Positions 22,243 through 53,251 of a stretch of DNA of 64,000 bases are shown here, in pieces. The notes beneath the pieces were generated by a model. It was not told the origin of the DNA, ran no database searches, and saw nothing but the letters and a program-made list of their open reading frames with translations. Source of the DNA: Bacteroidia bacterium (GTDB lineage: Bacteria > Bacteroidota > Bacteroidia > NS11-12g > UBA9320); assembly GCA_965655315.1 (NCBI GenBank), contig CBFHGJ010000001.1:207907-271906 (forward strand). The letters run 5' to 3'. How positions within the stretch are numbered: the stretch's first letter is position 1; every line of letters begins with the position of its first letter. A program made the translations under genes and the position numbers.

Positions 22243-23339
22243 CTTTGACACTAATACTTTTAGTGGTTTTTTCTTCCTGTAAAGATGATGATGATGTAAC
22301 ACCAAGCGAAGTGGTTCGTAAAAATGATGTTCCTGAGTTTTACTTAGAAGCCAATGAAGGAGATTGGGGTATCAATCAACCTAACATTTTGGAAATATCT
22401 TCTAGTGCTTCTAGGATATTAAAACCAACAGATTTGGATTTTAACCCTACTAGAAATGGAGAACTATGGATTACCAATGAGGGTACTGATAATACTGGAG
22501 GTACAACCGTGAGGATACCAAACATTGCAGCTGAAAATTATGAGTATGACTACAGAAAAGATGGTAATTCATGGCATTTTATGGCATTCCCAACTTCACT
22601 GGCATTTAGCAATAACGGAGATTGGGCCACTTCTACAGGTATATTAGATGCCAATAGACAAGGTGGTTCTTTTACAGGCCCTGCGTTATGGTCTGGAGAT
22701 TTAGATATATATGCTAAACCTAGTGGTGGAAATGGCAGTCATTTAGATATGTTGCATGGCAGTCCATATTCAATGGGAATTGCATCTGAAAATGACAACG
22801 CTTATTGGGTTTTTGATGGTTATAATAAACATATCTGCAGATATGATTTTGGTGGCGATCATGGTCCAGGAAACGCAGATCATGATGATGGAGTAATTCA
22901 GCGATTTACCAATATTTCTGTAAAGAAGAACGGTACTGTTCCAAGTCATATGGTAATGAATGATGATCGCACAATTCTATATGCTATAGACGGCGGTAAC
23001 AATAGAGTTCTAGAAATAGATGTGAATTCAGCTAATAGATTAAGATCACTCGGTTTAATCAATGAACAATTAGCCGATCATTCCGAGTGGAATGCTGACT
23101 TTGAGGTACTAGTTTCGGATGAGAACTTCAATTATTGTGGAATGGCCATTAATGGAAATCGTCTTTTTGTTGGAGATTTTGACAATGGTAATATTAGATG
23201 TATCGATTTGATTACTAATGAAGAACTAGGTCGAATAGAGACGGGTATACAAGGAATGACTGGTTTGGCAATATATAATGACCAACTTTACTTCGTTTCT
23301 TACACTACCAATTCTCTATATAAAATAGAAGCAAAGTAA
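22218..23339 (+). CDS. hypothetical lipoprotein, possible beta-propeller
   Basis: Lipobox VFSSC followed by an acidic linker; no motif recognised. Confidence 0.5.
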   Translation: MKKNNLLIALTLILLVVFSSCKDDDDVTPSEVVRKNDVPEFYLEANEGDWGINQPNILEISSSASRILKPTDLDFNPTRNGELWITNEGTDNTGGTTVRIPNIAAENYEYDYRKDGNSWHFMAFPTSLAFSNNGDWATSTGILDANRQGGSFTGPALWSGDLDIYAKPSGGNGSHLDMLHGSPYSMGIASENDNAYWVFDGYNKHICRYDFGGDHGPGNADHDDGVIQRFTNISVKKNGTVPSHMVMNDDRTILYAIDGGNNRVLEIDVNSANRLRSLGLINEQLADHSEWNADFEVLVSDENFNYCGMAINGNRLFVGDFDNGNIRCIDLITNEELGRIETGIQGMTGLAIYNDQLYFVSYTTNSLYKIEAK

Positions 23340-23343
23340 TCAC

Positions 23344-25053
23344 ATGAAGTACATTTTTACATTAAGTTTATCTCTTTTGAGTTATGTCTTATACGCTCAA
23401 AATGACATTATAATTCCTGATACATTATCAGGTGACCGTATTCAATTAGAATTAAAAACGGGTACTCATGAATTTTATTCAGGTATTCAGACAAATACAA
23501 TGGGAGCTAATGGTAATATTTTGGCTCCCACTTTAATTCTAAATAAAGGCGATAAAATAGACTTTGAGGTTACTAATAGTTTGAGTGATACAACAACTAT
23601 TCATTGGCACGGTTTGCACGTAGCACCAAAAAACGATGGAGGTCCACATACTATTATAAAACCAGGTGAAACTTGGAAACCAAGTTTTAAAATATTAGAT
23701 AAGGCTGCTACCTATTGGTATCACCCTCACTTACACCACAAAACTGATCAGCACGTTTCAAAGGGGATTGCAGGATTAATAATTGTAAGAGACGAAGAAG
23801 AAGCTAAACTTGATTTGCCTAGAAGGTATGGCAAAGATGATTTCCCAATTGTTCTTCAAACAAAAGATTTTGATGCTAACAATCAAATTCTATTTCATAC
23901 AAATTCAGATGATGTAGCTATGGTAAACGCTACCATAAACGGCACGTTAGATGCCCCAGCACAAGTTATCAGGCTCAGAGTGCTTAATGGATCATCACAA
24001 CGAGCATTCAGTGTGGGTTTTAGCGGTGATAAGGTATTCTACCAGATAGCCTCAGATGGCGGTTTACTAGAAAAACCTATTGAGCTAACTAGACTACTTT
24101 TATCGCCAGGGGAGCGAGCAGAGGTTTTATTGGATCTCAGTGAAATGGCAGGAGACAGCATCAAACTAATGAGTTTCGCATCAGAATTACCAAATGGTAT
24201 ATATGGTGCAGCTATTCCTGGGATGATGGCTCAAATGAGTATGACGGGATATAATCCTAATCCACTCAATGGAGCAAATTTCAGTATGTTGACATTAAAT
24301 GTGATTGCTCCAACAAGTAATCCTGTTACTGTAATTCCCTCGAGCTTAGTTACTGTAAAGAGGTTAAATGCTTCCGATGCTAATTTGATTCGAAATCTGA
24401 CCTTGAATCCAGCTTCAATGGGAATGAATCAATTGAACGGTGACTTTACAATAAGTAATACACCTTTTGATATGAATACAATCAATCACACAATAAGGTT
24501 GAATGATACTGAGATTTGGTCTATTCGAAACATGTCAGGGATAGCACATCCTTTTCATATTCATGATGTGCAATTTAATATTTTGGATAGAAATGGTGTT
24601 TCACCTTCTGCATCTGAGATGGGTCGAAAAGATGTAGTATTTATTAGACCTCAAGAAACAGTAAGGTTTATTACTAAGTTCGATAACTTTTCGGATTCTA
24701 TAACTCCATATATGTATCACTGTCATCTACTCACTCACGAAGATGGTGGAATGATGGGGCAGTTTATCGTTGTAGAAAATCTTGAAGTAGCCGATATATT
24801 TAAACCCAACAAGATAAAATTTAAAGTATATCCGAATCCAGCTTCTGATTATCTCAATATAAATTTTAATAAAATTGTAAATCTAGAGTCGATTAGCATT
24901 TATGATGTTAGAGGAGCTAGAGTCTTCTTTGAAGAGTATTTCGAACCTGCAAGAGAATATAAATTAAATTACGATTTGTCATCGGGGTATTATCGAGTTC
25001 ATGTAAATGCAGATACGGAACATTTTATAAAAAAATTGCTTATAAATAATTGA
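23344..25053 (+). CDS. multicopper oxidase with T9SS C-terminal sorting domain
   Basis: Cu-site motifs HWHGLH, HPHLHH, HPFHIHD, HCHLLTHEDGGMM; C-terminal KVYPNPASDYLNINF is a T9SS CTD. Confidence 0.85.
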   Translation: MKYIFTLSLSLLSYVLYAQNDIIIPDTLSGDRIQLELKTGTHEFYSGIQTNTMGANGNILAPTLILNKGDKIDFEVTNSLSDTTTIHWHGLHVAPKNDGGPHTIIKPGETWKPSFKILDKAATYWYHPHLHHKTDQHVSKGIAGLIIVRDEEEAKLDLPRRYGKDDFPIVLQTKDFDANNQILFHTNSDDVAMVNATINGTLDAPAQVIRLRVLNGSSQRAFSVGFSGDKVFYQIASDGGLLEKPIELTRLLLSPGERAEVLLDLSEMAGDSIKLMSFASELPNGIYGAAIPGMMAQMSMTGYNPNPLNGANFSMLTLNVIAPTSNPVTVIPSSLVTVKRLNASDANLIRNLTLNPASMGMNQLNGDFTISNTPFDMNTINHTIRLNDTEIWSIRNMSGIAHPFHIHDVQFNILDRNGVSPSASEMGRKDVVFIRPQETVRFITKFDNFSDSITPYMYHCHLLTHEDGGMMGQFIVVENLEVADIFKPNKIKFKVYPNPASDYLNINFNKIVNLESISIYDVRGARVFFEEYFEPAREYKLNYDLSSGYYRVHVNADTEHFIKKLLINN

Positions 25054-33444: not shown

Positions 33445-35196
33445 ATGAAAAAGTATATTATTTACATAGGAATTTTGCTTGGAGGATTGCTTCTTGGTTG
33501 GTTGATATTTGGTACACCATTGTCTGGTGATAGTGGGCACAATCATAATGAGCTATCTGAGAACGGACAGATTTGGACATGCTCTATGCATCCTCAAATC
33601 AGAATGAATGAGGCAGGAGACTGCCCAATATGTGGCATGGATTTAATTCCACTTAAAGATTCTCAATCTGATGAGAACCCAATGAGTATTAAGATGTCTC
33701 CTAAAGCTATGCAACTAGCCAATGTTCAAACGGCCATAGTAACAAAAGGAAGTGCTCTCAAGGAATTAAAGCTAAATGGCAAAGTGCAACCAGATGAGAG
33801 ACAAGTTTCTACTCAAACGAGTCACATAGCAGGCAGAATAGAGCTACTAAAGATTAACTACACTGGAGAGCAGGTATCTAAAGGTCAAGTACTAGCCTAT
33901 GTGTATTCTCCCGAACTTATAAGTGCACAAAAGGAGTTGTTTGAAGCCCAAAAGCTTATTGAGTTACAACCGGCTTTATTTAATTCGGCCAAAGAGAAAC
34001 TCCGGAACTGGAAACTCTCTGCTAGTACAATAAATACAATAATTGAAACAGGAAAAATAATAGAGAATTTCCCTATTCGTGCAGATATTTCGGGTGTAGT
34101 TACAGATAAATTAGTCAATGTTGGAGACTATCTAAATCAAGGAGAACCTTTATATAAAATCTCCAACTTAAATAAACTTTGGATCTTGTTTGATCTGTAT
34201 GAGTCTGATTTGGGTTTTGTGAGTAAAGGAGACAATGTATCATATTCTTTAAATGCAATTGCAGGCAAGACTTTTAATGGACGGATAGCTTTTATCGACC
34301 CTATTGTGGACCCTAAAACAAGAACGGCTAAAGCTAGAGTGGAGGTGAACAATTCAAATAATAAATTGAAACCTGAGATGTTGGTGAATGGCACTATTAA
34401 ATCTGTGATTTCTGCTAACGAAAATACTATGGTAGTTCCTAAGACTGCTGTAATGTGGACAGGCGAGAAATCTATAGTTTATAAAAAAATGGAGACCGCT
34501 AGTGGAGTTAGCTTTATGCTCACAGAAGTAGTTTTAGGCCCTTCTCTAGGGGATTCGTATGTAATAAGTAGTGGATTAGAAGAAGGTGACGAAATAGCCA
34601 CTAATGGCACATTTAGTATAGATGCCGCCGCACAGCTGGCAGGTAAACCCAGTATGATGAATCCTGAAGGAGGTAAATCGTCAATAGGTCATAATCATGG
34701 AGGATCATCAAATGAAATGAATAACAAGCCAAATAAGGCAGTTTCATTAAGTTCAGAAGCTAATAAAAGCCTAGGTAAACTCTTTGATTCATATTTGAAA
34801 GTAAAAGACAATTTAGTAAAAGATGACTTTGAAGGAAGTCAAGAATCTTTAATAGCGTTTAAAACACAGCTTAGTCAAATCAGTATGAGTCTATTCAAAG
34901 GTGAGAATCATGATATATGGATGAAACATTCTGATGCACTAAAAAAACTCGCAGATAAATACACAGCATCAAAGGATATAGCGGAGGCCCGAGACAATTT
35001 TATTCATATCTCCGAGCAGATGATAATGGTTAGTAAAAGTCTTAAACCAAGAATGGATAAGTTGTACGTGCAGTTATGTCCTATGGCAGATAGAAACAAT
35101 GGAGCAAGATGGTTAAGTAAAGAAGAAAAGGTTTTGAATCCATATTTTGGAGAGGCTATGTTGAAGTGCGGTTCGGTTAAGGAGGAGTTAGAATAA
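33445..35196 (+). CDS. efflux RND periplasmic adaptor subunit with N-terminal HMBD and C-terminal DUF3347-like extension
   Basis: CSMHPQI...CPICGMDL; biotinyl-lipoyl and beta-barrel adaptor regions; ~150-aa helical C-terminal extension. Confidence 0.75.
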   Translation: MKKYIIYIGILLGGLLLGWLIFGTPLSGDSGHNHNELSENGQIWTCSMHPQIRMNEAGDCPICGMDLIPLKDSQSDENPMSIKMSPKAMQLANVQTAIVTKGSALKELKLNGKVQPDERQVSTQTSHIAGRIELLKINYTGEQVSKGQVLAYVYSPELISAQKELFEAQKLIELQPALFNSAKEKLRNWKLSASTINTIIETGKIIENFPIRADISGVVTDKLVNVGDYLNQGEPLYKISNLNKLWILFDLYESDLGFVSKGDNVSYSLNAIAGKTFNGRIAFIDPIVDPKTRTAKARVEVNNSNNKLKPEMLVNGTIKSVISANENTMVVPKTAVMWTGEKSIVYKKMETASGVSFMLTEVVLGPSLGDSYVISSGLEEGDEIATNGTFSIDAAAQLAGKPSMMNPEGGKSSIGHNHGGSSNEMNNKPNKAVSLSSEANKSLGKLFDSYLKVKDNLVKDDFEGSQESLIAFKTQLSQISMSLFKGENHDIWMKHSDALKKLADKYTASKDIAEARDNFIHISEQMIMVSKSLKPRMDKLYVQLCPMADRNNGARWLSKEEKVLNPYFGEAMLKCGSVKEELE

Positions 35197-36088: not shown

Positions 36089-39000
36089 ATGTTCGATAAT
36101 TTAATCGCTTATTCGGTTAAGAATAAGTTTGTCATAGGGCTATTTGTAGCAGCCCTCATAGTTTGGGGGTTATTTTCTCTCAAGCAGCTACCCATAGATG
36201 CTGTACCTGATATAACCAATAATCAAGTACAGATAATCACTATTTCGCCCACACTTGCTACGCAAGAAGTGGAGCAGTTTATTACATCTCCTGTTGAGCT
36301 TGCTCTACAAAGTCTGCAAAAAACAGAAGAGATACGTTCTATATCTCGCTTTGGGCTTTCAGTAGTTACCGTAGTATTTGAAGAAAACTACGATATATAC
36401 TTAGCTCGACAGCTAGTGAATGAAAGACTCAAAGAGGCTCAAGGCAATATACCTGATGGCTTAGGTGTGCCAGAAATGGGGCCCCTCTCTACTGGATTGG
36501 GTGAGATATATCAATATGTAGTTCGACCAGATCAAGGCTTTGAAGAAAAATATTCCGCTACTGAGTTACGAAGCATCCAAGATTGGATTGTCAAAAGACA
36601 GTTGCTTGGAATCGAAGGAGTAGCTGAAGTCAATTCAATGGGTGGATTTTTAAAACAATATGAATTAGCCGTAAATCCTAATCTTCTTAAATCTGTAGGC
36701 ATAAGTATTTCAGATGTATTAGAGGCCTTAGAAAAAAGCAATGAGAATACTGGTGGAGCATACATTGAGAAAAATTCCAATGCCTACTATATCCGTTCTG
36801 AAGGATTAGCAAAGTCTTTAGATGATATTGGAAAAATAGTGGTTAGTGATAGAGGAAATATTCCAGTTTTAATTAGTGACATAGCTACTGTGCAATATGG
36901 TAAAGCTCCTCGATATGGAGCGTTAGTTCGAAATGGTGCAGAAGTAGTAGGTGGTAAGGTAATGATGTTCAAAGGAGCAAATTCTGCACAAGTAACTGAA
37001 AGAATTAAAGAACGAGTAGTACAAGTTCAAAAATCATTACCCGAAGGCGTAATCATAGAACCTTACTTGGTAAGAGATAAACTGGTGAATACTGCAATTG
37101 GTACGGTTAAAAAGAATCTAATTGAAGGTGGTTTAATAGTCATCTTTATATTAGTTCTTCTACTTGGTAATTGGAGAGCTGGATTAATTGTGGCTTCGGT
37201 CATTCCTCTGGCAATGCTGTTTGCCGTTTCTATGATGAACTTATTAGGTATATCAGCTAATCTTATGAGTTTAGGTGCTATTGATTTTGGATTGATAGTA
37301 GATGGTGCAGTTATAATAGTGGAAGCTATAGTACACCGCCTACAAGTCAAAAAAGCAGGAAGTCTGCTTTCGCAAACCGAAATGGACACAGAGGTAATTG
37401 CTTCCTCACAGAAAATAAGAAGTTCAGCAGCATTTGGTGAGATTATCATTCTGATGGTATACATACCTATTTTGGCTTTGGTAGGTATAGAAGGTAAAAT
37501 GTTTAAGCCTATGGCTCAAACAGTAATGCTTGCTATTGCAGGTGCATTGATACTTTCATTGACGTATGTACCTATGATGGCAGCCTTGGTGCTCAAGAAA
37601 AATGTAGTCAATAAAGAAACTTTTGCAGATAAAATCATTGCCTTTTTCCAAAGAGGCTACACACCAATTTTAAATGCAGCTCTACGGTTCAAAACAGTTT
37701 TTGTAAGTGCAACTATACTTGCTTTTTTAATCAGTCTGTTTGTATTCAGTAGGATGGGTGGCGAGTTTATTCCTACATTAGAAGAAGGTGACTTGGCAAT
37801 GCACCAAATCTTAGTGCCGGGCAGTTCACTGTCTCAAAGTGTAGAAACTGCTAAACTTATTCAAAACAGATTAAAAGATAGTATTCCAGAAATCATCGAT
37901 GATGTGGTAATTATAGGTTCGGCAGAAGTGCCAACTGATCCTATGCCCACAGAAATAGGCGACCATATTTTAGTTATGAAACCTAAATCTGAATGGACCA
38001 CAGCCACTACTAAACAGGGAATGTTTGACGCTATAAATGATGTCTTGAAAGATATTCCAGGAGTGACTTATGAATACTCACAACCAATTCAAATGAGGTT
38101 TAATGAATTGATGACAGGAACTCGGTCTGATATTGCCATTAAGCTATTTGGTGCTGACTTAGATGTGCTTTATCAAAAAGCAATAGAAGCTCAGGCTATA
38201 ATCGAAAAAGTAAGTGGTGTTGCTTCTGCCAATGTAGAGCAAACGATTGGAATGCCTCAAATTATCGTTTCATATAATTATGATAATATGGCACAATACG
38301 GTTTACATATTCAAGAGGTCAATCAAGTTGTTCGTTCAGCCTTTGCTGGAGAAAAAGCAGGAATTATTTATGAGGGTGATAAAAGGTTTGATTTAGTGGT
38401 TCGCCTAGCGGAAGAAAATAGAACAGGTATAGAAGATGTCGAAAATCTATTTATAACGCTGAGCAATGGAAGTCAAGTGCCGCTTACCAGTGTAGCCAAT
38501 GTTGATTTGATAGATGCACCTATGCAAATTTCAAGAGAAAACACTAATAGAAGAATTGTAATTGGTGTAAATGTAGGTAATACAGATGTAGAATCTTTAG
38601 TGGAAAAGATCCAAACAGAATTAGACACTAAAGTTAAGTTGCCGAACGGTTATTATTTTACTTATGGCGGACAGTTTGAAAACCTAAAAGCAGCCAATGC
38701 GAGATTATCTATTGCCGTTCCAATGGCCTTAGCCTTAATCTTCATTTTGCTTTACTTCACCTTTGGTTCAGTTTCACAGGCAGCTTTAATTTTTACAGCC
38801 ATTCCTTTGTCTGCCATTGGTGGAATATGGGCTTTGCAGCTTAGAGGGTTACCATTTAGCATTTCAGCTGGCATTGGTTTCATAGCTCTTTTTGGAGTAG
38901 CTGTGCTCAATGGCATTGTACTTATTGGCTATTTCAACCAACTTAAAAAGGAAGGAATGAAAAACATAAAAGAAAGAATTACAACAGGAACAAGAGTAAG

Positions 39001-40408
39001 ACTTAGACCAGTAATTATGACGGCTGCAGTAGCTTCACTTGGGTTTTTACCAATGGCTATATCTACTTCGGGCGGAGCAGAAGTTCAAAGACCATTGGCA
39101 ACGGTAGTTATTGGTGGTTTGATAACCGCTACTTTTTTAACATTGATCATATTGCCTATTCTTTACTATTGGTTAGAAAAATGGAGCGAAAGAAAAACCA
39201 ACAGAATTAATGTATCGAAAGGTGGTGTATTAGGAATCTTGTTGATTTTAGGTTTGTCCTTTTCTGCCCAAGCACAAGAGCAAGCTCTTGATTTGGATAG
39301 TGCTATTTCTATGGCAATCACTAATCATCCCAATTTAAAAGCAGCAAGTTTGGAAGTAGAGAAAAACAAGTCTTTACAAAACCTAAAATATAACTTGGGT
39401 ACTACAGATATATCCTATCAAGGTGATGGATTAGTAGATAGACAATTTGGACAGCAGGTTAATCAATTTGGAGTAGTTCAGAATTTCCCAAGTCCAGGTA
39501 TTACTAAGGCTCAAAATAAATTGCAAGATGCGTATACAAGTCAGAGCAGCACCCAACAGCAAATAACGGAGAACGAACTGAAATGGAAAGTCAAGCAATT
39601 ATACTTTGAAATTCAGTACAAAAAGGAATTGGAAAGGCTTTATAGCAATCTTGTTTCTACTTATAAAGAATACCATAGAAAATCAACTGTAAGAGTACAA
39701 GCAGGAGCTGCCAGTCGTATCGAAGAACTAACTTTACAATCCAAATGGAAGGGATACGAACTGCTCTATAACCAAGTTAAAATAGAAATTGCTAACTTAA
39801 ATAAGCGGTTTCAATTATTACTAAATACTAAGGAGTCTATTACCACCATAAATAGTCTATCAGTGGCAAACTATCTCACTCAGATAGATACAGCTACAAA
39901 CCCACTTCTATTAAAAAGTCAGCAAGAAATTGCCGTAGAAAATGCCAAAGTAGATGCTATGAAGGCTGAATTAAAACCCAGCTTCAATGTTGGCTATGCT
40001 GCACAAAATTTCAATCAAGGAGGTTGGCTAAATGCAGCACAAGCAGGCGTTGCTATTCCGCTATTTAATGGTCAAACTAAAAAGAGAATAGCGGCTCAGG
40101 AAAAGCAGATTGAGATAGGCAACTATCAATACCAAAGTACACTTTTGAGTTTCAAACAAGACCAATTAGAGATACAAAACACATTGAACTTGTATCAAGC
40201 AGGAGTGGATTTTTACAAAAACCAAATAGAAACCATTAATCCAGAAATTATCAGAATAAGTGAACTAAACTACCAAGCAGGAGAAATCTCTTACTTAGAA
40301 TTATTGAACACTTTACAACTGATGACAACCAATAATAAAAATTATTGGGAGCAGATTTTAGCCTACAATAAGGCGGTAGCTGACTTTCAATTTCTTACAA
40401 ATCAATAA
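36089..40408 (+). CDS. czcA: CusA/CzcA family HME-RND permease fused in frame to a C-terminal TolC-like outer membrane factor domain
   Basis: aa 1-~1040 are full CzcA; the linker GGVLGILLILGLSFSAQAQ is signal-peptide-like; aa ~1060-1439 are paralogous to the separate OMF at 29324 (NHPNLKAASLEVE...LLLNTK). Confidence 0.8.
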   Translation: MFDNLIAYSVKNKFVIGLFVAALIVWGLFSLKQLPIDAVPDITNNQVQIITISPTLATQEVEQFITSPVELALQSLQKTEEIRSISRFGLSVVTVVFEENYDIYLARQLVNERLKEAQGNIPDGLGVPEMGPLSTGLGEIYQYVVRPDQGFEEKYSATELRSIQDWIVKRQLLGIEGVAEVNSMGGFLKQYELAVNPNLLKSVGISISDVLEALEKSNENTGGAYIEKNSNAYYIRSEGLAKSLDDIGKIVVSDRGNIPVLISDIATVQYGKAPRYGALVRNGAEVVGGKVMMFKGANSAQVTERIKERVVQVQKSLPEGVIIEPYLVRDKLVNTAIGTVKKNLIEGGLIVIFILVLLLGNWRAGLIVASVIPLAMLFAVSMMNLLGISANLMSLGAIDFGLIVDGAVIIVEAIVHRLQVKKAGSLLSQTEMDTEVIASSQKIRSSAAFGEIIILMVYIPILALVGIEGKMFKPMAQTVMLAIAGALILSLTYVPMMAALVLKKNVVNKETFADKIIAFFQRGYTPILNAALRFKTVFVSATILAFLISLFVFSRMGGEFIPTLEEGDLAMHQILVPGSSLSQSVETAKLIQNRLKDSIPEIIDDVVIIGSAEVPTDPMPTEIGDHILVMKPKSEWTTATTKQGMFDAINDVLKDIPGVTYEYSQPIQMRFNELMTGTRSDIAIKLFGADLDVLYQKAIEAQAIIEKVSGVASANVEQTIGMPQIIVSYNYDNMAQYGLHIQEVNQVVRSAFAGEKAGIIYEGDKRFDLVVRLAEENRTGIEDVENLFITLSNGSQVPLTSVANVDLIDAPMQISRENTNRRIVIGVNVGNTDVESLVEKIQTELDTKVKLPNGYYFTYGGQFENLKAANARLSIAVPMALALIFILLYFTFGSVSQAALIFTAIPLSAIGGIWALQLRGLPFSISAGIGFIALFGVAVLNGIVLIGYFNQLKKEGMKNIKERITTGTRVRLRPVIMTAAVASLGFLPMAISTSGGAEVQRPLATVVIGGLITATFLTLIILPILYYWLEKWSERKTNRINVSKGGVLGILLILGLSFSAQAQEQALDLDSAISMAITNHPNLKAASLEVEKNKSLQNLKYNLGTTDISYQGDGLVDRQFGQQVNQFGVVQNFPSPGITKAQNKLQDAYTSQSSTQQQITENELKWKVKQLYFEIQYKKELERLYSNLVSTYKEYHRKSTVRVQAGAASRIEELTLQSKWKGYELLYNQVKIEIANLNKRFQLLLNTKESITTINSLSVANYLTQIDTATNPLLLKSQQEIAVENAKVDAMKAELKPSFNVGYAAQNFNQGGWLNAAQAGVAIPLFNGQTKKRIAAQEKQIEIGNYQYQSTLLSFKQDQLEIQNTLNLYQAGVDFYKNQIETINPEIIRISELNYQAGEISYLELLNTLQLMTTNNKNYWEQILAYNKAVADFQFLTNQ

Positions 40409-44966: not shown

Positions 44967-45101
44967 ATGCACAGAGGACTTAAGCCAAGAATAGATAAGT
45001 TGTACCTGCTGCCATATCCTATGGCAGATAGAAACAATGGATCAAGATGGTGTTCTGTGGCATTAACGCGAACGTTTTTGCTAAACGTTTGGATTTGCTG
45101 A
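44967..45101 (+). pseudogene. remnant of a duplicated efflux-adaptor 3' end
   Basis: 44979-45050 aligns with 35043-35112: LKPRIDKLYLLPYPMADRNNGSRW versus LKPRMDKLYVQLCPMADRNNGARW. Confidence 0.7.
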
Positions 45102-45304: not shown

Positions 45305-45545
45305 GAGTTTCGTGTCACAGTTGGGAACGTATTGACAGGGGCCATTTAAAATTTAAGGAGGTTGTAAGCAGATGGAGTTCCTAGTTTTTCATTTTTTTGG
45401 CAAAATATTTTTTTTCGTCTTTTCACCATTTTTTTGAAAAATATTTCATTCGCGCCATCGAGCCCCCTATATCTAAGTCCCTAAACGATATATAAGGTGG
45501 GATACCCCCTACCTGATAGGAGGGAGGAGATCCCCGGATCTAATT

Positions 45546-45700
45546 TTGATTGGCGCCATCTCACAATATAGAGTGTCGGTTTCATAGGAACTGAGTCTGG
45601 TATTTGTATTTCGAAACAGGAGGAGGAATGGTTTGATCCTGGAAGGGATCATGAATATTGATTGGCATATCCAGAATTTGAGATCTATTTCCAGGTAGTT
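45546..45700 (+). promoter_or_regulatory. three direct copies of (A)TTGATTGGC upstream of the serine recombinase gene
   Basis: Copies at 45546-45554, 45658-45666 and 45692-45700; an inverted copy lies at 46673-46681 downstream of the gene. Confidence 0.5.
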
Positions 45701-45841
45701 ATTGATTGGCCCAACTAAAACATCACATTTTGGGGTATACTTTTTTTTGTGATGTCCATTTTGGTAAAAAACATAGATTTTATGCTGCATATGTGTGTTT
45801 TGGCTATACTTTTAGGGTGCATACATAATAACCCTAAAAAA

Positions 45842-46465
45842 ATGAGTAATTCAATACTGTATACGAGAGTTTCATCCATAGATCAAAGAACAGATCGACA
45901 GAGAGTAAATGAAAAGAGTTATGACCTAGTTATTGAGGATAAATGCCCAGGGGATTTGGAAATATTTCTAAGACCAGAAGGTTCTAGGTTGAAAACTATG
46001 ATAGACAGGAATTTAGTTGGTTCGATTTCTGTTTGGTCGATTGATCGTTGTGGCCGTAACCTTCGGAACATTATTGACTTTATCTATTACACAACCGAAC
46101 GCAGAATTCCAGTAACCTTTATTTCTCAAGGTTTATGTACGTTAGATGAAAATGGTGATGAGAATCCAATAGCTAAGATGTTCATATCCATATTAGGTTG
46201 TGTTGCAGAAATGGAGAGAAGTCAGATAAAGGAGAGGCAAAGGCAGGGAATCGACTTAGCCTTGCTAGATCCAAATAAGTATTTAGGACGTAAACCTGGA
46301 AGTCAAGAAACAGTTCTGCAGTTTCTTTCGAAGAAGAAAAACAAACAGGCCATGGATTTACTACAGAAAGGATATAAGAATATTGAGGTTTCCAAAATCG
46401 CTGGATTACACCCTAATACAATATCAAAGATTAAAAAGTACCTTAATGTCTCAAATCCCGGGTGA
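45842..46465 (+). CDS. small serine recombinase (resolvase/invertase family)
   Basis: N-terminal ILYTRVSSIDQRTDRQ catalytic-Ser motif; C-terminal HTH; start taken at the Met in MSNSILY to give the canonical N-terminus. Confidence 0.85.
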   Translation: MSNSILYTRVSSIDQRTDRQRVNEKSYDLVIEDKCPGDLEIFLRPEGSRLKTMIDRNLVGSISVWSIDRCGRNLRNIIDFIYYTTERRIPVTFISQGLCTLDENGDENPIAKMFISILGCVAEMERSQIKERQRQGIDLALLDPNKYLGRKPGSQETVLQFLSKKKNKQAMDLLQKGYKNIEVSKIAGLHPNTISKIKKYLNVSNPG

Positions 46466-47027: not shown

Positions 47028-48167
47028 ATGGATATTAAAATAGCATACCTCTCGCATAGGGGACGGTCAGATATGGAAGATGTGGTTGCTATGTTTTCTA
47101 AGGATGTAGGGCCAATCACATTTCAGTTAATTGATCATACGAATTCTTCAGAGTATTATTTACTGCATCGTGAACTTGAAAATATAGACTCGGAAAACTT
47201 TAAGAGACTGAGTAAGCTGATAAGGGAAGAAGTTGGATTAAAGGACGATGATGTTCTAGTTATTGTTTCACCTCGAGAACTTAATTCTCCATATAAACTT
47301 GAGAACTCATTTAAAAACTGGGTGAGTTACTATATTAAGAACAATATTATTATTAGGTCTAGCGGCTACGATAAGGTGACCGAGGGTAAGCCATATCTCG
47401 GCGGAGCCTACCAAATCATTGAAAACCTATTTCAAAATTTGGGAGGGATTGACCTAGCTGTATTAGTGGAAAATGAAAGAATTCATTTCGAACCTGAAGG
47501 TTGCGTTAATGATTTCGCTGAGGAGTTTAAGCAGGTTAAATACAAAATGCGGTCTGGATTCATCTGTGAAAAATGCAAAGAAGCAGCGTTGAATTCAGAA
47601 TCATCCAGAATGGATAAGGGAGCACTCCATCAGATAGAAAATATCTTGAACAGAATCGGTAATCGACTGAAGGATAATTATACGATTAATTATACTCCTG
47701 ATGAGTTAAAGATTGAGGTAATACTTGAACGCAATCCACATAAACTTTACGCTCGTCCTAGATGTAGGATGAAAATTGGCAATAAAACAATCAATTTTGG
47801 AAGAAGAGGGGAGTTGATGACTGTTCGATACGTTTTTTACTTAATAAACCATAACCTACCAATAGGAAAATATGATTTCATTGGTGATGGAGTTTATAAT
47901 GATGCAGCAGAAAAGTATAAACTGCTGTATGAAAAAATACAGGGGAGTGTCACTTCAAAAACATTAGGGGATTACATTGATAACCTATCCAAACTTCATG
48001 ACAGAATATCAAACCGGATAATTAATGAGGTTCAGAATGATTACATAGGAGATCTATACAGCCTTAGATCATTAAAGACAAATAAAACTGACACCTGCTA
48101 TATTATCAATGTAGAGCCTGATAACATTGATATCCCAGAAGAGCTTATGGAATTCAGAGTAGCATAA
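47028..48167 (+). CDS. hypothetical protein, possible TIR-like N-terminal domain plus Cys-cluster middle region
   Basis: KIAYLSHRGRSDMEDVV resembles the TIR beta-A motif (FxSFRGEDTR); DDDVLVIVSPRELNSPYKLENSF resembles TIR beta-C/alpha-C; CEKC and RPRCR Cys pairs. Confidence 0.3.
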   Translation: MDIKIAYLSHRGRSDMEDVVAMFSKDVGPITFQLIDHTNSSEYYLLHRELENIDSENFKRLSKLIREEVGLKDDDVLVIVSPRELNSPYKLENSFKNWVSYYIKNNIIIRSSGYDKVTEGKPYLGGAYQIIENLFQNLGGIDLAVLVENERIHFEPEGCVNDFAEEFKQVKYKMRSGFICEKCKEAALNSESSRMDKGALHQIENILNRIGNRLKDNYTINYTPDELKIEVILERNPHKLYARPRCRMKIGNKTINFGRRGELMTVRYVFYLINHNLPIGKYDFIGDGVYNDAAEKYKLLYEKIQGSVTSKTLGDYIDNLSKLHDRISNRIINEVQNDYIGDLYSLRSLKTNKTDTCYIINVEPDNIDIPEELMEFRVA

Positions 48168-48231: not shown

Positions 48232-49842
48232 ATGTTTATCAAGAATTACACATCCGCAGAACTTAACATCAACGAAGTAAAAGTAGTTGAAGTATTAAGT
48301 AGTTTCTACGATCATCAAGATCAAAAATCAGAAGAGCAGCTAAGTTACTCTTTAAAGTCCAATGGTCAACTGTTACCACTTACAGTCTCAGCAAAAAATG
48401 AACTGATTGATGGGTATCGAAGACTTAATCTACTGCGTAGATTAGGAGTGAAGTCCGTCAAAGTTCAAATTGTAGATGAGCAACCTACACTTGAGTTGAG
48501 AGTGGCTTTGAACACTACTAGGATAAAAACGGAAAACGACCTAACTAAAGAGGTCATTCAAATCTTTAAATCTGTACCCAAAAGACAGGGGAGAGGTAAA
48601 GGTGATGAAAAGTATAGTCGGTACGCCATTATTCAAGAGGAATTGGATTACCGTTGGAAATCTTCTACAGCAATTCGTCAGATTGACAAGATTATCGAGA
48701 ATGATTTCGAGGATAACCTCCTAATGAAAGGTATCGTAACAAAAGGTTGGACATTGACTGATTGTGAGCGATATGTTGGTGGCTTAAAGAAGCTTGACGT
48801 TGATCGTGAATTAGGATACACTGAAAAACTCAAAAAGGGAGAAATCAATATAAATGAGGCTGTCAAGTTCATCACAGAAACAGTTGTTCTAAGCACTGAA
48901 TACCAAGATACCTTTATCATTCCAGATAGATCTTCATCTTTCAATTTGAACTGTAGGGATATTAACCAGTTAGTTCAATTCAAAGGTCAAGTTCCATTTA
49001 TCTTTACGTCGATACCTTACTATTCGGTTCGATATTATAATACTGGTGAAGGGAGTGACCAGTTAGGGCACGAAAGAACGCCTGAACAGTTTGCTGCCAA
49101 CATTGGAAAAATCATTAGTAGGTTCGAATTCCTAATAAATCCCACATCAAATGTTATGATCAATATAGGAGAAACTTATAGAAATGGTTGTGCACTTGAT
49201 ATTCCAGGATTAGTAAAAAATGCAATCAAAGAACATACGGGACTCACTTATAAGGATACATTGATATGGAGTAAACCAAACCCTCATCCTCAAGGTGAAA
49301 AGGTGAATCGTCCTACGAATAATACCGAAGTAATACTCTGGTTTGTTGTAGATCCAGCTAAGTCCAAGTACAATCACCTGAAGTACACAGACGAGAAGAA
49401 ACAAATAGGTATTACCAAAGGAGCCAAGGATGTAAACCAAAATGGGGTTGTTTCAAAGAAATCCAAGTCTCTTTCAAAACCTTACAAGAAGATCTATAAC
49501 CATCTAGCAGCCCAAGATGTGAATAGAATGATCAAATGTGCTGTTGGAGGGAATAAGCCTGTTCAAGAAGCCTCTATCCTAAGTCACCCTGCAATGATGG
49601 CTGAGTTGTTACCTGTTGTGCCAATTTTAATGACGACAGACGAGAATGACCTAGTTTTTGATCCCTTCGGAGGTGTTAATACCACGGGTAGAATTGCCAA
49701 TCTGTTGAATCGAAGATATCTATCAACAGAACTAACATCTCAGTATTATCAAGTTGGATGTAAGGTTATGGAAAACGCACAGAAGGAGTTTAACCAGGAC
49801 GAATTATCAATAGTCCTAAATGAATTTAATGAAGCAGCATAA
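48232..49842 (+). CDS. ParB-like nuclease domain fused to an N6/N4 DNA methyltransferase domain
   Basis: LPLTVSAKNELIDGYRRLNLLRRLG is a ParB/Srx DGxxR motif; FIFTSIPYY is a motif IV variant; DPFGGVNTTGRIANLLNRRYLSTEL is a DPFxGSGTT AdoMet motif. Confidence 0.7.
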   Translation: MFIKNYTSAELNINEVKVVEVLSSFYDHQDQKSEEQLSYSLKSNGQLLPLTVSAKNELIDGYRRLNLLRRLGVKSVKVQIVDEQPTLELRVALNTTRIKTENDLTKEVIQIFKSVPKRQGRGKGDEKYSRYAIIQEELDYRWKSSTAIRQIDKIIENDFEDNLLMKGIVTKGWTLTDCERYVGGLKKLDVDRELGYTEKLKKGEININEAVKFITETVVLSTEYQDTFIIPDRSSSFNLNCRDINQLVQFKGQVPFIFTSIPYYSVRYYNTGEGSDQLGHERTPEQFAANIGKIISRFEFLINPTSNVMINIGETYRNGCALDIPGLVKNAIKEHTGLTYKDTLIWSKPNPHPQGEKVNRPTNNTEVILWFVVDPAKSKYNHLKYTDEKKQIGITKGAKDVNQNGVVSKKSKSLSKPYKKIYNHLAAQDVNRMIKCAVGGNKPVQEASILSHPAMMAELLPVVPILMTTDENDLVFDPFGGVNTTGRIANLLNRRYLSTELTSQYYQVGCKVMENAQKEFNQDELSIVLNEFNEAA

Positions 49843-51406
49843 GATGAAAGTAAGAAAGTATACATATAGGGTTGCAATACCAATGAACATCGATGCAGAA
49901 TCTCTTGTGCAAGAACTAAATATTGAATCTAGATTAACTCAAAAGACAGTGAAAAATAAGATAGTTAGGGTGATATCTAGACTAACTAGAACACATCGAA
50001 ACTCAAGATACTTTTACCATGATAACCATATCAGAATTTGCTCCAAGGAATTACAAAAAATACTAAACAGAGATTACGAAAAAGTATTAAATCTCCTAAA
50101 AACAGAAGGCATAATTGAAAATGGAAAAGATTATCTCCCTGGTGACAGATGCAGCAAATATCGATTAAAACACAAGTGTCAATATGTTAAATATAAATAC
50201 AAAACCATCACCATAAGACAAAAGGAGATTGAGAGTAAAACAAAACTATTAGACTCATACTTCAATGATAAAATCACTATAAAGAGTGATGATATTTATC
50301 CTAAACTCATAAAGTTTTACTCGGAAGTAGAAAAACAACTAAAAACACCTAAACAAATCAAAATACTTAAAAATTGGATAGGTATGATGTTACTGTTGAT
50401 AGAAGATATCGACAAAAATGAATTTTGGAAAAGTAGATCAGCATCAAATAAAAGATACAATTCTTCAATAACCAATATATCAAAGAAATTCAGAGGATAT
50501 CTAAAATATGACAATCAGCAACTGATTCAAGTAGATGTAAAATCTAGTCAGGTTTATGTATTAGCTAGTTTGCTTAATCATCAATTCTTTAAACAAAAAG
50601 GAGATTATTCATTCTATAGATTAACAAAAGATCTAATTGATAAGAAAACAAGAAAAGAGGTTATGCTTTACATGTTTTCCACATTAATGTTTGCGCAATT
50701 TTCTAGTAAACCTATAGGAGATATTTCCCCGGACACCTTAGATCATGAGGAATTTAAAAAGTTTCGAGACGCACCATTTTCTGAAGATTTCTATTCCCAC
50801 ATTTGTCATTTGGAAAATAACTCATTCCCAAGTTCAGAAGAAAGAGATGCAATTAAGTCTGGCATCATGTATCTACTCTTTCAAGACTTGTATGCACATC
50901 GTAAAAATGTTGAAAGTGTTAAACTATTCAAGCGAATTTATCCATTTGTAAACAGGTGTATAGAACGCCTTCTTTCAGATATTGGCAAGTCAAATTTCGC
51001 CTTGTTTCTCCAGAGGGCTGAAAGTTACCTAGTTCTTGATTGTATTGTACCTGAGTTTCACAGATTGTGTCCTGAAGCTCCAATTTTTACAATTCACGAT
51101 TCAATTCTAACAACTCAGAAATACAAGGATCAGTTATATGATGTTATGAATACGGTTTTAACTGAGAGAACGGGTATTAAACCCGGATTGACAGTTGAAA
51201 ACATAAAAGAGATAGATTTTACGCAAGAATCTTATGTCATCGAAATGGTCAATAGAATAATAAAAGATTCCAAGCCGTCACGTTATAAAGAGCTCAAGAA
51301 TTCACTTCTGAAAAATTGTATTGAAAAAGCTGAAGAATTTATTTCGGAGTGGAACGTAACCAGTAACCATATATCGAATGATAAAAAGGATATGGAAGAG
51401 AGCTGA
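49820..51406 (+). CDS. hypothetical protein with polymerase-like palm motifs (Pol I / T7-RNAP type)
   Basis: Motif A-like QVDVKSSQVYVLASLL (D239); motif B-like KKTRKEVMLYMFSTLMF (K279, Y284); motif C-like IFTIHDSI (H426 D427), in the canonical A-B-C order. Confidence 0.35.
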   Translation: MNLMKQHKMKVRKYTYRVAIPMNIDAESLVQELNIESRLTQKTVKNKIVRVISRLTRTHRNSRYFYHDNHIRICSKELQKILNRDYEKVLNLLKTEGIIENGKDYLPGDRCSKYRLKHKCQYVKYKYKTITIRQKEIESKTKLLDSYFNDKITIKSDDIYPKLIKFYSEVEKQLKTPKQIKILKNWIGMMLLLIEDIDKNEFWKSRSASNKRYNSSITNISKKFRGYLKYDNQQLIQVDVKSSQVYVLASLLNHQFFKQKGDYSFYRLTKDLIDKKTRKEVMLYMFSTLMFAQFSSKPIGDISPDTLDHEEFKKFRDAPFSEDFYSHICHLENNSFPSSEERDAIKSGIMYLLFQDLYAHRKNVESVKLFKRIYPFVNRCIERLLSDIGKSNFALFLQRAESYLVLDCIVPEFHRLCPEAPIFTIHDSILTTQKYKDQLYDVMNTVLTERTGIKPGLTVENIKEIDFTQESYVIEMVNRIIKDSKPSRYKELKNSLLKNCIEKAEEFISEWNVTSNHISNDKKDMEES

Positions 51407-51515: not shown

Positions 51516-51653
51516 ATGAACAAGCAAGATTCAATAAGAACAATCAAGGAGGAGCTAGCAGATGTTCCGAGAACAGACATAACGCTAATCATCAACCTTT
51601 TGAATAAATTAGCTCAAATTGAATACGACAATTACGTAAAACTAAACCAATGA
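51516..51653 (+). CDS. 45-aa ORF translationally coupled to the large serine recombinase (possible recombination directionality factor or regulator)
   Basis: MNKQDSIRTIKEELADVPRTDITLIINLLNKLAQIEYDNYVKLNQ; the stop overlaps the integrase ATG (ATGA). Confidence 0.3.
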   Translation: MNKQDSIRTIKEELADVPRTDITLIINLLNKLAQIEYDNYVKLNQ

Positions 51654-53212
51654 GAACAATTATCTACAAACGGGTAAGCACTGATGATCAAGCCGATCGA
51701 GGATATTCACTTCAACATCAGGAAAGTGTAATGAGACAATACTGTGAATTGAATAATTACCCTATTGTAAATATATACACTGAAGATTTTAGTGGTAAAG
51801 ATTTTAATCGTCCAGAATGGGTTAAAATTATAAATTATCTCAAGAAGAATAGGGGTGAGGTAGATCAGATATTATGTCTTCGTTGGGACCGTTGGTCAAG
51901 GAATCAATATTTGGCACTCAAAGAAATTAAAACACTAGAAAAATACGGAGTCCTCATATCAACGGTGGAACAGCCAATAGACCTTTCAAGCCCAGACAGT
52001 AAGGTGCTTTTGAGCTTATACCTGACACTCCCAGAAGTTGAAAACGATAAAAACAGTATTAGAACTACTGAAGGGATGAGGAGGTCGCGCATTGAAGGCT
52101 GTTGGACAGGTGCTGCTCCTCGTGGTTATGATAATTGCAAGATTGACAACAAGTCAACCTTAATACCAAACGAGGCTGCACCATACATAAAAGAATGTTT
52201 CGAAAGATTTGCTCTAGGAATATATTCAGCCAATGAAGTTAGAAAGTACATTAATGGAAAGAAGTATTCTTATAAACGTGGAACATTCTACTTGAGTAAA
52301 TCAACCTTCTATAATACAATCCGGAATATTGCATACACAGGTAAAATAAAAGTAAAAGCGTGGAAGAAAGAACCGGAGCAAATAATAGTTGGTCGTCACC
52401 CTCCGATAGTGTCTGACGTCCTTTTTAAGAGGGCCAATGATTATCTGGAGGGAAGGGTTAGAAATTGTGACTTTAAATCTGAAAAAAGTGACCTATACCC
52501 TTTAAAAGGATTTATGAGATGTTCCAAACACGATCGTGCTATTACCGCGTATAAATGTCAAAGTAGAAATAAAACTTGGCACCATTACTATCTGTGTACT
52601 AAACCAAAATGTCGAAGGTTCAGAGTGGATTGGGCGCACGAACAGATTAAAAACCTTTTGGATAAGATCTCTTTTACTGCAGGTATGGTTAAGGTTTACA
52701 AATCGCAGCTTGAGGCACTGATAGATAGAGAGGATGTCACAAGAAAGACTGAAATCAAGCGATTAAATGAGTCAATTGAAAACTATGGTCGTCGACAATT
52801 AAAACTACAGAATTCTTTTCTTGATGGAGATATTACCTCCGTTGATTACAATGGGATGAAGTCCAGAATTGAGTCTGAGATTAGTGAAAAAAAGGATCAA
52901 CTATCAAATTTGAAGTCTGTAAAGAGTCCTTTTAAGGTGTATCTCAATAAAACTCTTCCAATGATTGAAAACCTAAGCCAGTATTGGGATGAGGCGGATG
53001 GTGAGACTAAAAGGAAAATTCTTGGTTGCATCTTTAAGGAAAACTTCGAAAATTTTGATTTTGAGAGTTGCAACCAGATATTCACTCCAGAGATTGAATC
53101 TATTCTGTTGGCCAGCAAGGTTTTGAGAAATGATGTAAATAAAAAGGAGGTCAAAAATGACCTCCTGTCTATAATGGCGCCCTCACCTGGACTCGAACCA
53201 GGGACCTATTGA
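51650..53212 (+). CDS. large serine recombinase (integrase)
   Basis: TIIYKRVSTDDQ catalytic Ser; recombinase domain; zinc ribbon CSKHDR...CTKPKC; coiled-coil; the 3' end overlaps tRNA-Asn. Confidence 0.85.
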   Translation: MRTIIYKRVSTDDQADRGYSLQHQESVMRQYCELNNYPIVNIYTEDFSGKDFNRPEWVKIINYLKKNRGEVDQILCLRWDRWSRNQYLALKEIKTLEKYGVLISTVEQPIDLSSPDSKVLLSLYLTLPEVENDKNSIRTTEGMRRSRIEGCWTGAAPRGYDNCKIDNKSTLIPNEAAPYIKECFERFALGIYSANEVRKYINGKKYSYKRGTFYLSKSTFYNTIRNIAYTGKIKVKAWKKEPEQIIVGRHPPIVSDVLFKRANDYLEGRVRNCDFKSEKSDLYPLKGFMRCSKHDRAITAYKCQSRNKTWHHYYLCTKPKCRRFRVDWAHEQIKNLLDKISFTAGMVKVYKSQLEALIDREDVTRKTEIKRLNESIENYGRRQLKLQNSFLDGDITSVDYNGMKSRIESEISEKKDQLSNLKSVKSPFKVYLNKTLPMIENLSQYWDEADGETKRKILGCIFKENFENFDFESCNQIFTPEIESILLASKVLRNDVNKKEVKNDLLSIMAPSPGLEPGTY

Positions 53213-53251
53213 TTAACAGTCAACCGCTCTAACCAGCTGAGCTATGAAGGC
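53175..53251 (-). tRNA. tRNA-Asn (GTT)
   Basis: GCCTTCATAGCTCAGCTGGTTAGAGCGGTTGACTGTTAATCAATAGGTCCCTGGTTCGAGTCCAGGTGAGGGCGCCA: 7-bp acceptor stem, D and T arms, anticodon loop CTGTTAA, CCA encoded. Confidence 0.85.

Follow-up and report, generated by a model that had tools for sequence, protein, structure and literature searches.

What kind of enzyme is encoded at the edge of a heavy-metal-resistance island of a Bacteroidia bacterium, between the genes of a DNA methyltransferase and of a large serine recombinase, is the question that we address here. The locus lies in a stretch of 64,000 nucleotides (contig CBFHGJ010000001.1, forward strand; below, the window), and the protein concerned is the product of an open reading frame (ORF) of 528 aa at 49820..51406 on the plus strand, exactly the coordinates and length given by a first-pass annotation made from the DNA letters alone, which had recognized polymerase-like motifs in it. 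According to our analysis, the gene encodes a winged-helix domain joined to a minimal family-A-type polymerase core, and with a probability of roughly 0.6 we consider its product to be the replication primase-polymerase of the excised island, a member or a close analogue of the group of Transposon-Virus polymerases (TV-Pols). The true start of the gene is probably the second ATG of the ORF, at 49844, which would yield a product of 520 aa, because the TAA stop codon of the methyltransferase gene upstream occupies 49840-49842 and the homologues begin at the equivalent of M9, including a metagenomic protein (P0001) of 520 aa that is 98% identical. Residues are numbered throughout by the 528-aa ORF that starts at 49820.

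Searches with the protein itself do not reveal a polymerase. It had no match in Pfam (E<=1), PHROGs, NCBIfam or PADLOC, and a direct membership of the Pfam families DNA_pol_A (PF00476) or RNA_pol (PF00940), which had been considered for it, was not supported at this threshold; nor was there a match among the Protein Data Bank (PDB) sequences, either with the single sequence or with a profile of 27 sequences. Alignment of these 27 sequences by hhalign to the single sequences of Klenow and of T7 RNA polymerase (RNAP) was not significant (Prob about 1%), and neither was hmmsearch with a hidden Markov model (HMM) of 172 family sequences against Pol I, T7 DNA polymerase (DNAP) and T7 RNAP; the best local alignment of this HMM to T7 DNAP, with a non-significant score, falls on motif B (R518/K522). 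Among the sequence and profile comparisons with Pol A, significance was reached by the profile-profile one alone: the polymerase region of the 172 sequences, aligned by hhalign to a Pol A profile of 12 sequences (E. coli Pol I, T7 gp5 and ten diverse phage polymerases), gave Prob 89.7% and E 1.9e-6 over 247 columns. From the family alignment AlphaFold2 gave a confident model (predicted local distance difference test, pLDDT, 85.1; predicted template modelling score, pTM, 0.78), and the top 50 Foldseek matches to this model are all family-A DNA polymerases. The fold is thus a right hand of the Pol I type, with thumb, palm and fingers, and the proposal of a minimal single-subunit polymerase of the Pol I/T7 RNAP superfamily is borne out by the Foldseek and hhalign results. 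Since the family keeps invariant residues at 20-47% identity, has a confident model and gives a significant profile-profile match, the polymerase signal is far beyond chance.

The conservation figures below refer to an alignment of 149 diverse homologues, 20-47% identical to the query. Seven residues are invariant in it (R212, D239, Y325, K346, E401, H426 and D427), and four more (Q244, R342, Q398 and P421) are conserved in at least 90% of the sequences. Motif A (50516..50569, plus strand), which the first-pass annotation had read as VDVKSSQVYVLASLL, consists of the palm strand of aa 233-240 running up to D239, followed by S243, Q244 and Y246; D239 is present in 100% of the sequences, S243 in 87%, Q244 in 93%, and position 246 is Y or F in 93%. 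In the hhalign register Q244 stands at E710 of Pol I, which is the steric-gate position. Motif C (51080..51112, plus strand), previously read as FTIHDSI, is the beta-turn-beta element P421-I-F-T-I-H426-D427-S428-I-L-T, whose H426, D427 and S428 correspond to H881, D882 and E883 of Pol I; H426 and D427 are conserved in 100% of the sequences, T424 in 87% and S428 in 69%. As had been predicted, D239 and D427 are found at catalytic positions, aligning to D705 and D882 of E. coli Pol I. By DSSP of the model, D239 closes the strand 233-240 and D427 lies between the strands 423-425 and 428-432, so that the two aspartates have the canonical palm arrangement as far as it is given by the modelled secondary structure together with the alignment.

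As for motif B, its earlier placement at aa 276-290 (TRKEVMLYMFSTLMF, with K279 and Y284 as the key residues) did not stand. This segment (50645..50689, plus strand) is a variable insertion in the fingers and no polymerase motif: its alignment columns are occupied in 21-61% of the sequences, no residue exceeds 16% at positions 277-286, and in the profile alignment nothing in Pol A corresponds to it. The true motif B, or O-helix, sits 60 residues downstream (50843..50881, plus strand) and is recognized by its conservation and by the hhalign register as R342-x3-K346-x3-M350-x3-F354, these four residues pairing with R754, K758, F762 and Y766 of Pol I. K346 is conserved in 100% of the sequences and R342 in 91%, position 350 is M, F or L, and position 354 is F or Y in 92%. 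Further conserved positions lie outside the three motifs noted before. R212 (100%) belongs to a beta-hairpin of aa 204-215 (50429..50464, plus strand; strands 204-206 and 213-215) and corresponds to R668 of Pol I, in its 'TGRLSS' sequence. The motif L-L-Q398-R-x-E401-S (51005..51025, plus strand) contains Q398 (99%), the equivalent of Q849 of Pol I, and E401 (100%), a family-specific invariant glutamate. The invariance of R212, D239, K346, E401, H426 and D427 argues for an active enzyme.

The polymerase core is preceded by the predicted winged-helix DNA-binding domain of aa ~1-140 (49820..50240, plus strand), which has conserved features of its own: a P21-x-N-[LI]-D motif, 'GIIE' and 'Y..G..S..YRL'. 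Next come the two long antiparallel helices of the thumb, aa 156-171 and 177-198 by DSSP of the model (50273..50413, plus strand), which lie within the stretch that hhalign aligns to the Pol A thumb, and then the arginine hairpin, the palm and the fingers; the helical C-terminal tail (aa 470-528) is confined to a close subclade. No exonuclease or other nuclease domain is present in the protein by Pfam or in the model, which is made up of the winged helix, the core and the C-terminal tail, and no nuclease gene was detected by Pfam in the core module described below. The enzyme differs from the bacterial and phage family-A DNA polymerases (E. coli Pol I Klenow, Taq and T7 gp5) in its smaller core (~320 aa versus ~410 aa), in having neither 3'-5' nor 5'-3' exonuclease, in the substitutions of Gln for Glu710, HDS for HDE and Met/Phe for Phe762/Tyr766, in LLQRxE standing for QGxAAD, and in a family-specific insertion in the fingers at aa ~255-320.

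Such an enzyme has precedents. The TV-Pols were described by Iyer, Abhiman & Aravind in 2008 (Biol Direct 3:39, PMC2579912) as proteins of 400-600 aa from mobile elements of several bacterial phyla, Bacteroidetes among them, with a core of a bi-helical thumb, a beta-hairpin with an invariant arginine, two aspartates and an RxxxK in the fingers, and with no nuclease; they are accompanied either by a D5-like helicase or by an extra N-terminal domain and a gamma-delta-type resolvase, a lambda-type integrase or a transposase, and were predicted to be primase-polymerases (PMC2579912). Our protein resembles them in size, in the minimal core, in the invariant hairpin arginine, the two aspartates and the RxxxK, and in the absence of a nuclease domain, as well as in the extra N-terminal domain, the adjoining serine recombinase or lambda-type integrase, the mobile-element setting and the occurrence in Bacteroidetes. 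All elements of the TV-Pol core can be pointed out in it, namely the helices 156-171/177-198, the hairpin 204-215 with R212, D239, D427 and R342xxxK346; these are common to the whole Pol A superfamily, and by themselves they do not separate a TV-Pol from other family-A polymerases. The mobile-element context is present too: a serine recombinase downstream, a small resolvase upstream, tRNA attachment (att) sites, and an integrase in 50 of the 80 related loci. A D5-like helicase, the partner of part of the TV-Pols, was not seen near the polymerase gene. The novelty of the enzyme type, which the first reading of the locus implied, has to be given up, because TV-Pols were predicted in 2008 (PMC2579912) and the biochemistry of a distant member was reported in 2020.

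This distant member is CcPol of SCCmec, an exonuclease-less DNA polymerase that makes dNTP (deoxyribonucleoside triphosphate) primers de novo when bound to the MP protein (PMC7581432), and that is encoded beside a helicase (Cch2) and large serine recombinases (PMC7581432, PMC10061031). The likeness to CcPol-MP and to the PolA-SSB (single-stranded DNA-binding protein) primases of Bacillota (Bebel et al. 2020, PMC7581432; Rice 2023, PMC10061031) extends to the exonuclease-less family-A polymerase, to the integrative element moved by large serine recombinases, and to the presumed role in replication of the excised element. The differences are that the SCCmec system has a separate oligonucleotide/oligosaccharide-binding (OB)-fold MP for single-stranded DNA binding and priming and the Cch2 helicase, in place of which a fused winged helix is found here, and that CcPol, with 15-22% identity to Pol I, is annotated as A-family, whereas the present family escapes Pfam DNA_pol_A. 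Our literature search found nothing newer on bacterial TV-Pols. A functional analogy may also be drawn with piPolB of the pipolins, a self-priming DNA polymerase of integrative elements with recombinases and tRNA att sites; piPolB, however, belongs to family B and not A, and its homology is confined to the RNA recognition motif (RRM) of the palm.

The family is large. When 1.84 billion representatives, each standing for a cluster at 50% identity, were searched exhaustively with phmmer, 2,164 proteins were returned at E<=1e-3, of which 770 reached E<=1e-10, and this sets the family size at no less than 2,164 clusters; these relatives are all without a name, and a Pfam domain is present in none of them. 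A word-indexed search gave 47 clusters, and a profile search with the 149 sequences in a set of 5.8 billion proteins retrieved the same proteins, at least 46, with no named relatives and no carriers of Pfam DNA_pol_A among the matches listed. The genomic context was analysed in 80 related loci, nearly all from Bacteroidota. A tyrosine integrase (Arm-DNA-bind_5 + Phage_int_SAM_5 + Phage_integrase) is encoded upstream in 50 of the 80, in 36 of the 80 a gene of the HTH_17 type (a helix-turn-helix, HTH, protein of the Xis/AlpA type) ends just before the polymerase gene, and the integrase-linked loci often adjoin tRNA-Ser or tRNA-Phe. The slot after the integrase or Xis gene is the usual place of the primase or Rep gene in integrative elements.

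The same position, after Xis-like HTH genes and beside recombinases, recalls recombination directionality factors, and together with the N-terminal winged helix it might suggest that the protein serves excision and integration as a DNA-binding regulator or an architectural factor, with catalysis dispensable and the polymerase fold a relic; some Pol-SSB pairs do retain only a vestigial RRM core (Rice 2023, PMC10061031). We regard this explanation as highly improbable, considering that D239, D427, K346, R212 and H426 are kept in 100% and R342 in 91% of the 149 divergent sequences.

In the window, the polymerase gene belongs to a core module of five genes (45.7-53.2 kb), all on one strand: a small serine resolvase, p379, a fusion of ParB-N with an N6/N4 DNA methyltransferase (ParB-MTase), the polymerase and the large serine recombinase. 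The module starts with the small resolvase/invertase (45749..46465, plus strand; Pfam Resolvase, E 2.7e-18), which is conserved in the subclade. The ParB-MTase gene (48232..49842, plus strand; matches in Pfam, PHROGs and PADLOC; synteny in loci L003-L014) ends 1 nt ahead of the ATG at 49844 and overlaps the ORF counted from 49820 by 23 nt; with either start, this proximity suggests that the ParB-MTase and the polymerase are co-translated. The large serine recombinase (51650..53212, plus strand), the putative island integrase, has the Resolvase, Recombinase and zinc ribbon domains by Pfam, matches a PHROG integrase at E 2e-73, and is CcrB/XisF-like by NCBIfam, being distantly CcrB-like. The set of resolvase, p379, ParB-MTase and polymerase is common to the closest 12 of the 80 loci. 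Compared with one of them (L006), the ParB-MTase is 88% and the recombinase 93% identical, whereas the polymerase is only 42% identical, and this contrast between the gene and its flanks points to the polymerase gene behaving as an exchangeable cassette in a conserved backbone or else diverging very fast. Such a combination of 42% identity in the polymerase with 88-93% in the backbone is what is expected for a replicon-specificity cassette.

Taken together with the SCCmec precedent, the following mechanism may be proposed. The large serine recombinase would excise the island from tRNA-Asn, the winged-helix domain would bind the element DNA at its origin, and on the circular form the polymerase core would initiate DNA synthesis, extend it, or do both. 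In the active site, D239 and D427 would coordinate two metals, R342 and K346 of the O-helix would bind the incoming nucleotide triphosphate, and R212 and Q398 would contact the minor groove of the primer-template. The enzyme would then be the replication primase-polymerase of the element, as has been shown for CcPol-MP of SCCmec; the DNA product, the priming de novo, the binding to an origin and the replication of a circle are features that we infer from CcPol and from the genomic context.

Several observations weigh against this interpretation. No helicase gene and no SSB, OB-fold or MP-like gene has a Pfam match in the region of 45.7-53.2 kb, and the search for iterons or an obvious origin near the polymerase gene gave nothing convincing. 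The N-terminal domain is here an alpha/beta winged helix with strands, whereas TV-PolN, which is found as a stand-alone neighbour too, was predicted to be all-helical (PMC2579912), and CcPol is the sole TV-Pol that has been characterised (PMC7581432). The left border of the island was not located, a search for a displaced fragment of tRNA-Asn and for long direct repeats that would mark it having given none, and this leaves the current mobility of the island unproven. Nor is there a significant sequence link to a named TV-Pol, for which gp030 of Microcystis phage Ma-LMM01 was compared, presumably the TV-Pol meant in the 2008 paper: within the first 50 kb of the phage, the family HMM ranks it above the other ORFs, at a non-significant E of 0.23, and its hhalign probabilities, 4.8% and 2.5%, are also non-significant, including with its own family of 6 sequences. 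Finally, the positions responsible for sugar selectivity depart from those of DNA polymerases, the gate being occupied by Gln (in 93% of the sequences) and not by Glu, and HDS and Met350 being as in T7 RNAP.

The features just mentioned, HDS, Met350 and a steric gate other than Glu, are also the grounds for supposing a miniature T7-like RNA polymerase that transcribes the genes of the element or makes RNA primers, with the winged helix recognizing a promoter. We consider this unlikely. The matches to DNA polymerases are better, Gln244 is bulky where T7-like RNAPs have Gly, Phe354 speaks for a DNA polymerase as well, and the modules of promoter recognition are absent: in comparison with T7 RNAP, N4 RNAPII and mitochondrial RNAP, the protein has neither the specificity loop nor the intercalating hairpin, nor the N-terminal domain that binds the promoter. 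Its length of 520-528 aa falls short of that of a T7-like RNAP by about 360 aa and, together with the model, leaves no room for promoter elements.

The full Pol I-type active site, taken together with an MP/SSB-like or helicase gene not being seen in the module, would equally suit a primer-dependent polymerase that performs gap filling or strand displacement during integration, excision or transfer and is no primase; CcPol alone extends primers and does not prime without MP (PMC7581432). Against such an enzyme, no conjugation genes are present in the window, and the Pol I of the host is available for work of this sort; moreover, the fused winged helix and the cassette-like divergence suggest initiation at a specific site rather than generic fill-in. 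It is a general property of serine and tyrosine recombinases that they leave no gaps needing fill-in. We therefore find this explanation improbable, if slightly less so than that of an RNA polymerase.

Within the primase-polymerase interpretation, a more specific version can be put forward, tentatively and with more doubt than confidence: the enzyme may be a self-contained, origin-specific primase-polymerase, in which the fused winged helix takes the place both of the MP and of the helicase that binds the origin in the SCCmec system. If so, a single polypeptide of about 520 aa would find the origin and initiate DNA de novo with a family-A active site, and the steric-gate Gln might permit initiation with mixed ribonucleoside and deoxyribonucleoside triphosphates (rNTP/dNTP). 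It would be the smallest origin-specific replicase known in the Pol I lineage, and the swaps of polymerases of 42% identity in backbones of 88-93% identity would represent an exchange of replicon specificity.

The remaining neighbour, p379 (47028..48167, plus strand; syntenic in loci L004, L005, L007-L009 and L014), is a conserved gene of the module whose 379-aa product has no match in Pfam, NCBIfam, PADLOC, PHROGs or PDB. It carries a C-x2-C pair (FICEKCKE) and is always found upstream of the ParB-MTase gene in the subclade; a partnership with the polymerase is conceivable. The polymerase gene adjoins, and is probably co-transcribed with, those of the ParB-MTase and p379, and in 7-9 distant loci Type I restriction-modification genes lie downstream, from which one might think of an anti-phage defence or anti-restriction module engaged, for example, in the synthesis of a nucleic-acid signal or decoy. 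PADLOC, however, matches neither the polymerase nor p379, the link to p379 and the ParB-MTase is confined to one subclade while that to an integrase is family-wide, and the restriction-modification genes look like cargo. The reading as a defence system was rejected on the absence of a PADLOC match and on the linkage to p379 and the methyltransferase in one subclade only, and there is very little to be said for its probability.

The finding is of significance for the family. With at least 2,164 clusters it is very large, everywhere labelled 'hypothetical protein' and unseen by Pfam, NCBIfam and PHROGs; it is found almost wholly in integrative elements of Bacteroidota, yet possesses a complete and invariant Pol I-type active site, and it is likely to be the replication enzyme of tRNA-targeting genomic islands. 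As the island in question carries about 30 kb of heavy-metal-resistance genes, the polymerase is relevant to the maintenance and spread of such islands. The only relative with biochemistry, and a distant one, is CcPol of SCCmec (PMC7581432). The winged-helix-fused form, without a helicase or SSB partner, makes an attractive minimal system for studying initiation by family-A polymerases and their sugar selectivity, and an HMM and an annotation for the family are the practical gain. Conceptually, the prediction of 2008 is confirmed and extended and no new category is added; what retains interest is the large unannotated family, the partner-less architecture with the fused winged helix, and the unusual substitutions at the sugar-selectivity positions.

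Some observations on more remote relatives and on possible relatives may be added. In Microcystis phage Ma-LMM01, gp030 (22746-24266, minus strand; L093) is annotated as hypothetical and adjoins two transposase genes. By eye, it shares with our family the pattern and spacing of D-x3-[SC]-[QH], K, L-Q-x-x-E and H-D, and the Q-x-x-E spacing of Q398/E401 recurs in the gp030 family. Conserved between gp030 and its five metagenomic homologues are GLRxYE..GGLQ, NxDxxKCH, KTAxLAxxNGA, LQxxE and QHDGA, and judged by these motifs gp030 looks like a polymerase core without the motif-B arginine. In viral collections the relatives of the polymerase are rare, amounting to 3 IMG/VR contigs and 4 weak matches in huge uncultured phages, and on this ground a phage origin of the polymerase was rejected. 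The phage matches were obtained by tblastn in unannotated genomes of 630-735 kb, with E from 4e-6 to 1e-2 over aa ~294-453 (fingers to motif C); they are located in LR745206 (223176-223604), LR756502 (240102-240431) and LR756501/LR756503 (526248-526586), and they may represent related minimal polymerases. In about ten distant loci (L030, L033, L042, L049, L059, L061, L066, L070 and L071 among them), the polymerase gene adjoins a divergent gene pair, upstream and on the opposite strand, encoding a Sak4-like ATPase of the AAA_24 type and a protein with DUF3871, which could be a replication/recombination module associated with that branch.

As to possible regulatory sequences, a scan for sigma-70 promoters performed no better than on shuffled sequence, as expected for Bacteroidota. 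Upstream of the small resolvase gene, in a gap of 697 nt, there are three copies of TATTGATTGGC, one of them with a single mismatch, at 45544-45710, adjoined by an A/T-rich imperfect tandem of 33 nt at 45378-45446; for this repeat region, a role as a res site, a regulatory site or an origin is conceivable.

The core module is located at the tRNA-Asn end of the heavy-metal-resistance island. The integration target, tRNA-Asn(GTT), was identified by ARAGORN at 53175..53251 on the minus strand, and the recombinase ORF enters its 3' half from the opposite strand, so that the last ~12 codons are antisense to the tRNA; the same overlap is seen in L005 (9606-11219) and L006 (2851-4479). In the alignment of the three genomes, the element sequence is conserved to about 53171 and from 53172 on L005 has its own host-specific tRNA, which places the end of the island at the 3' end of tRNA-Asn, with the junction, as judged from this alignment, at ~53171/53172. 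The terminator hairpin of tRNA-Asn (53145-53166, minus strand) is part of the element, with 100% conservation among the three genomes. Since the recombinase ORF crosses the junction between island and host, the excised form would encode a recombinase with a different C-terminus.

The first 15.5 kb of the window (1-15.5 kb) contain housekeeping genes, and the region of 16-45 kb is the heavy-metal-resistance cargo of the island. It includes genes of MerT/HMA, MbnP, two di-haem cytochrome c peroxidases, a multicopper oxidase with a type IX secretion system (T9SS) sorting tail, two resistance-nodulation-division (RND) systems, two P-type ATPases with HMBD/HMA domains, and Fur; a 20-mer that encodes 'CPVCGM' occurs in it three times. 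The ORF at 36089-40408 (plus strand) encodes a protein of 1439 aa that combines a full RND pump (ACR_tran, aa 6-1029) with an outer-membrane-factor domain, OEP (aa 1270-1438), an unusual fusion of inner-membrane pump and outer-membrane channel which could be real or an artefact of a frameshift or of the assembly. This ORF belongs, together with genes of HlyD, two methyltransferases and a P-type ATPase, to a segment of about 9.9 kb flanked by a 73-nt direct repeat (35041-35113 and 44979-45051, 89% identical), which may mark a resistance cassette duplicated or inserted within the island.

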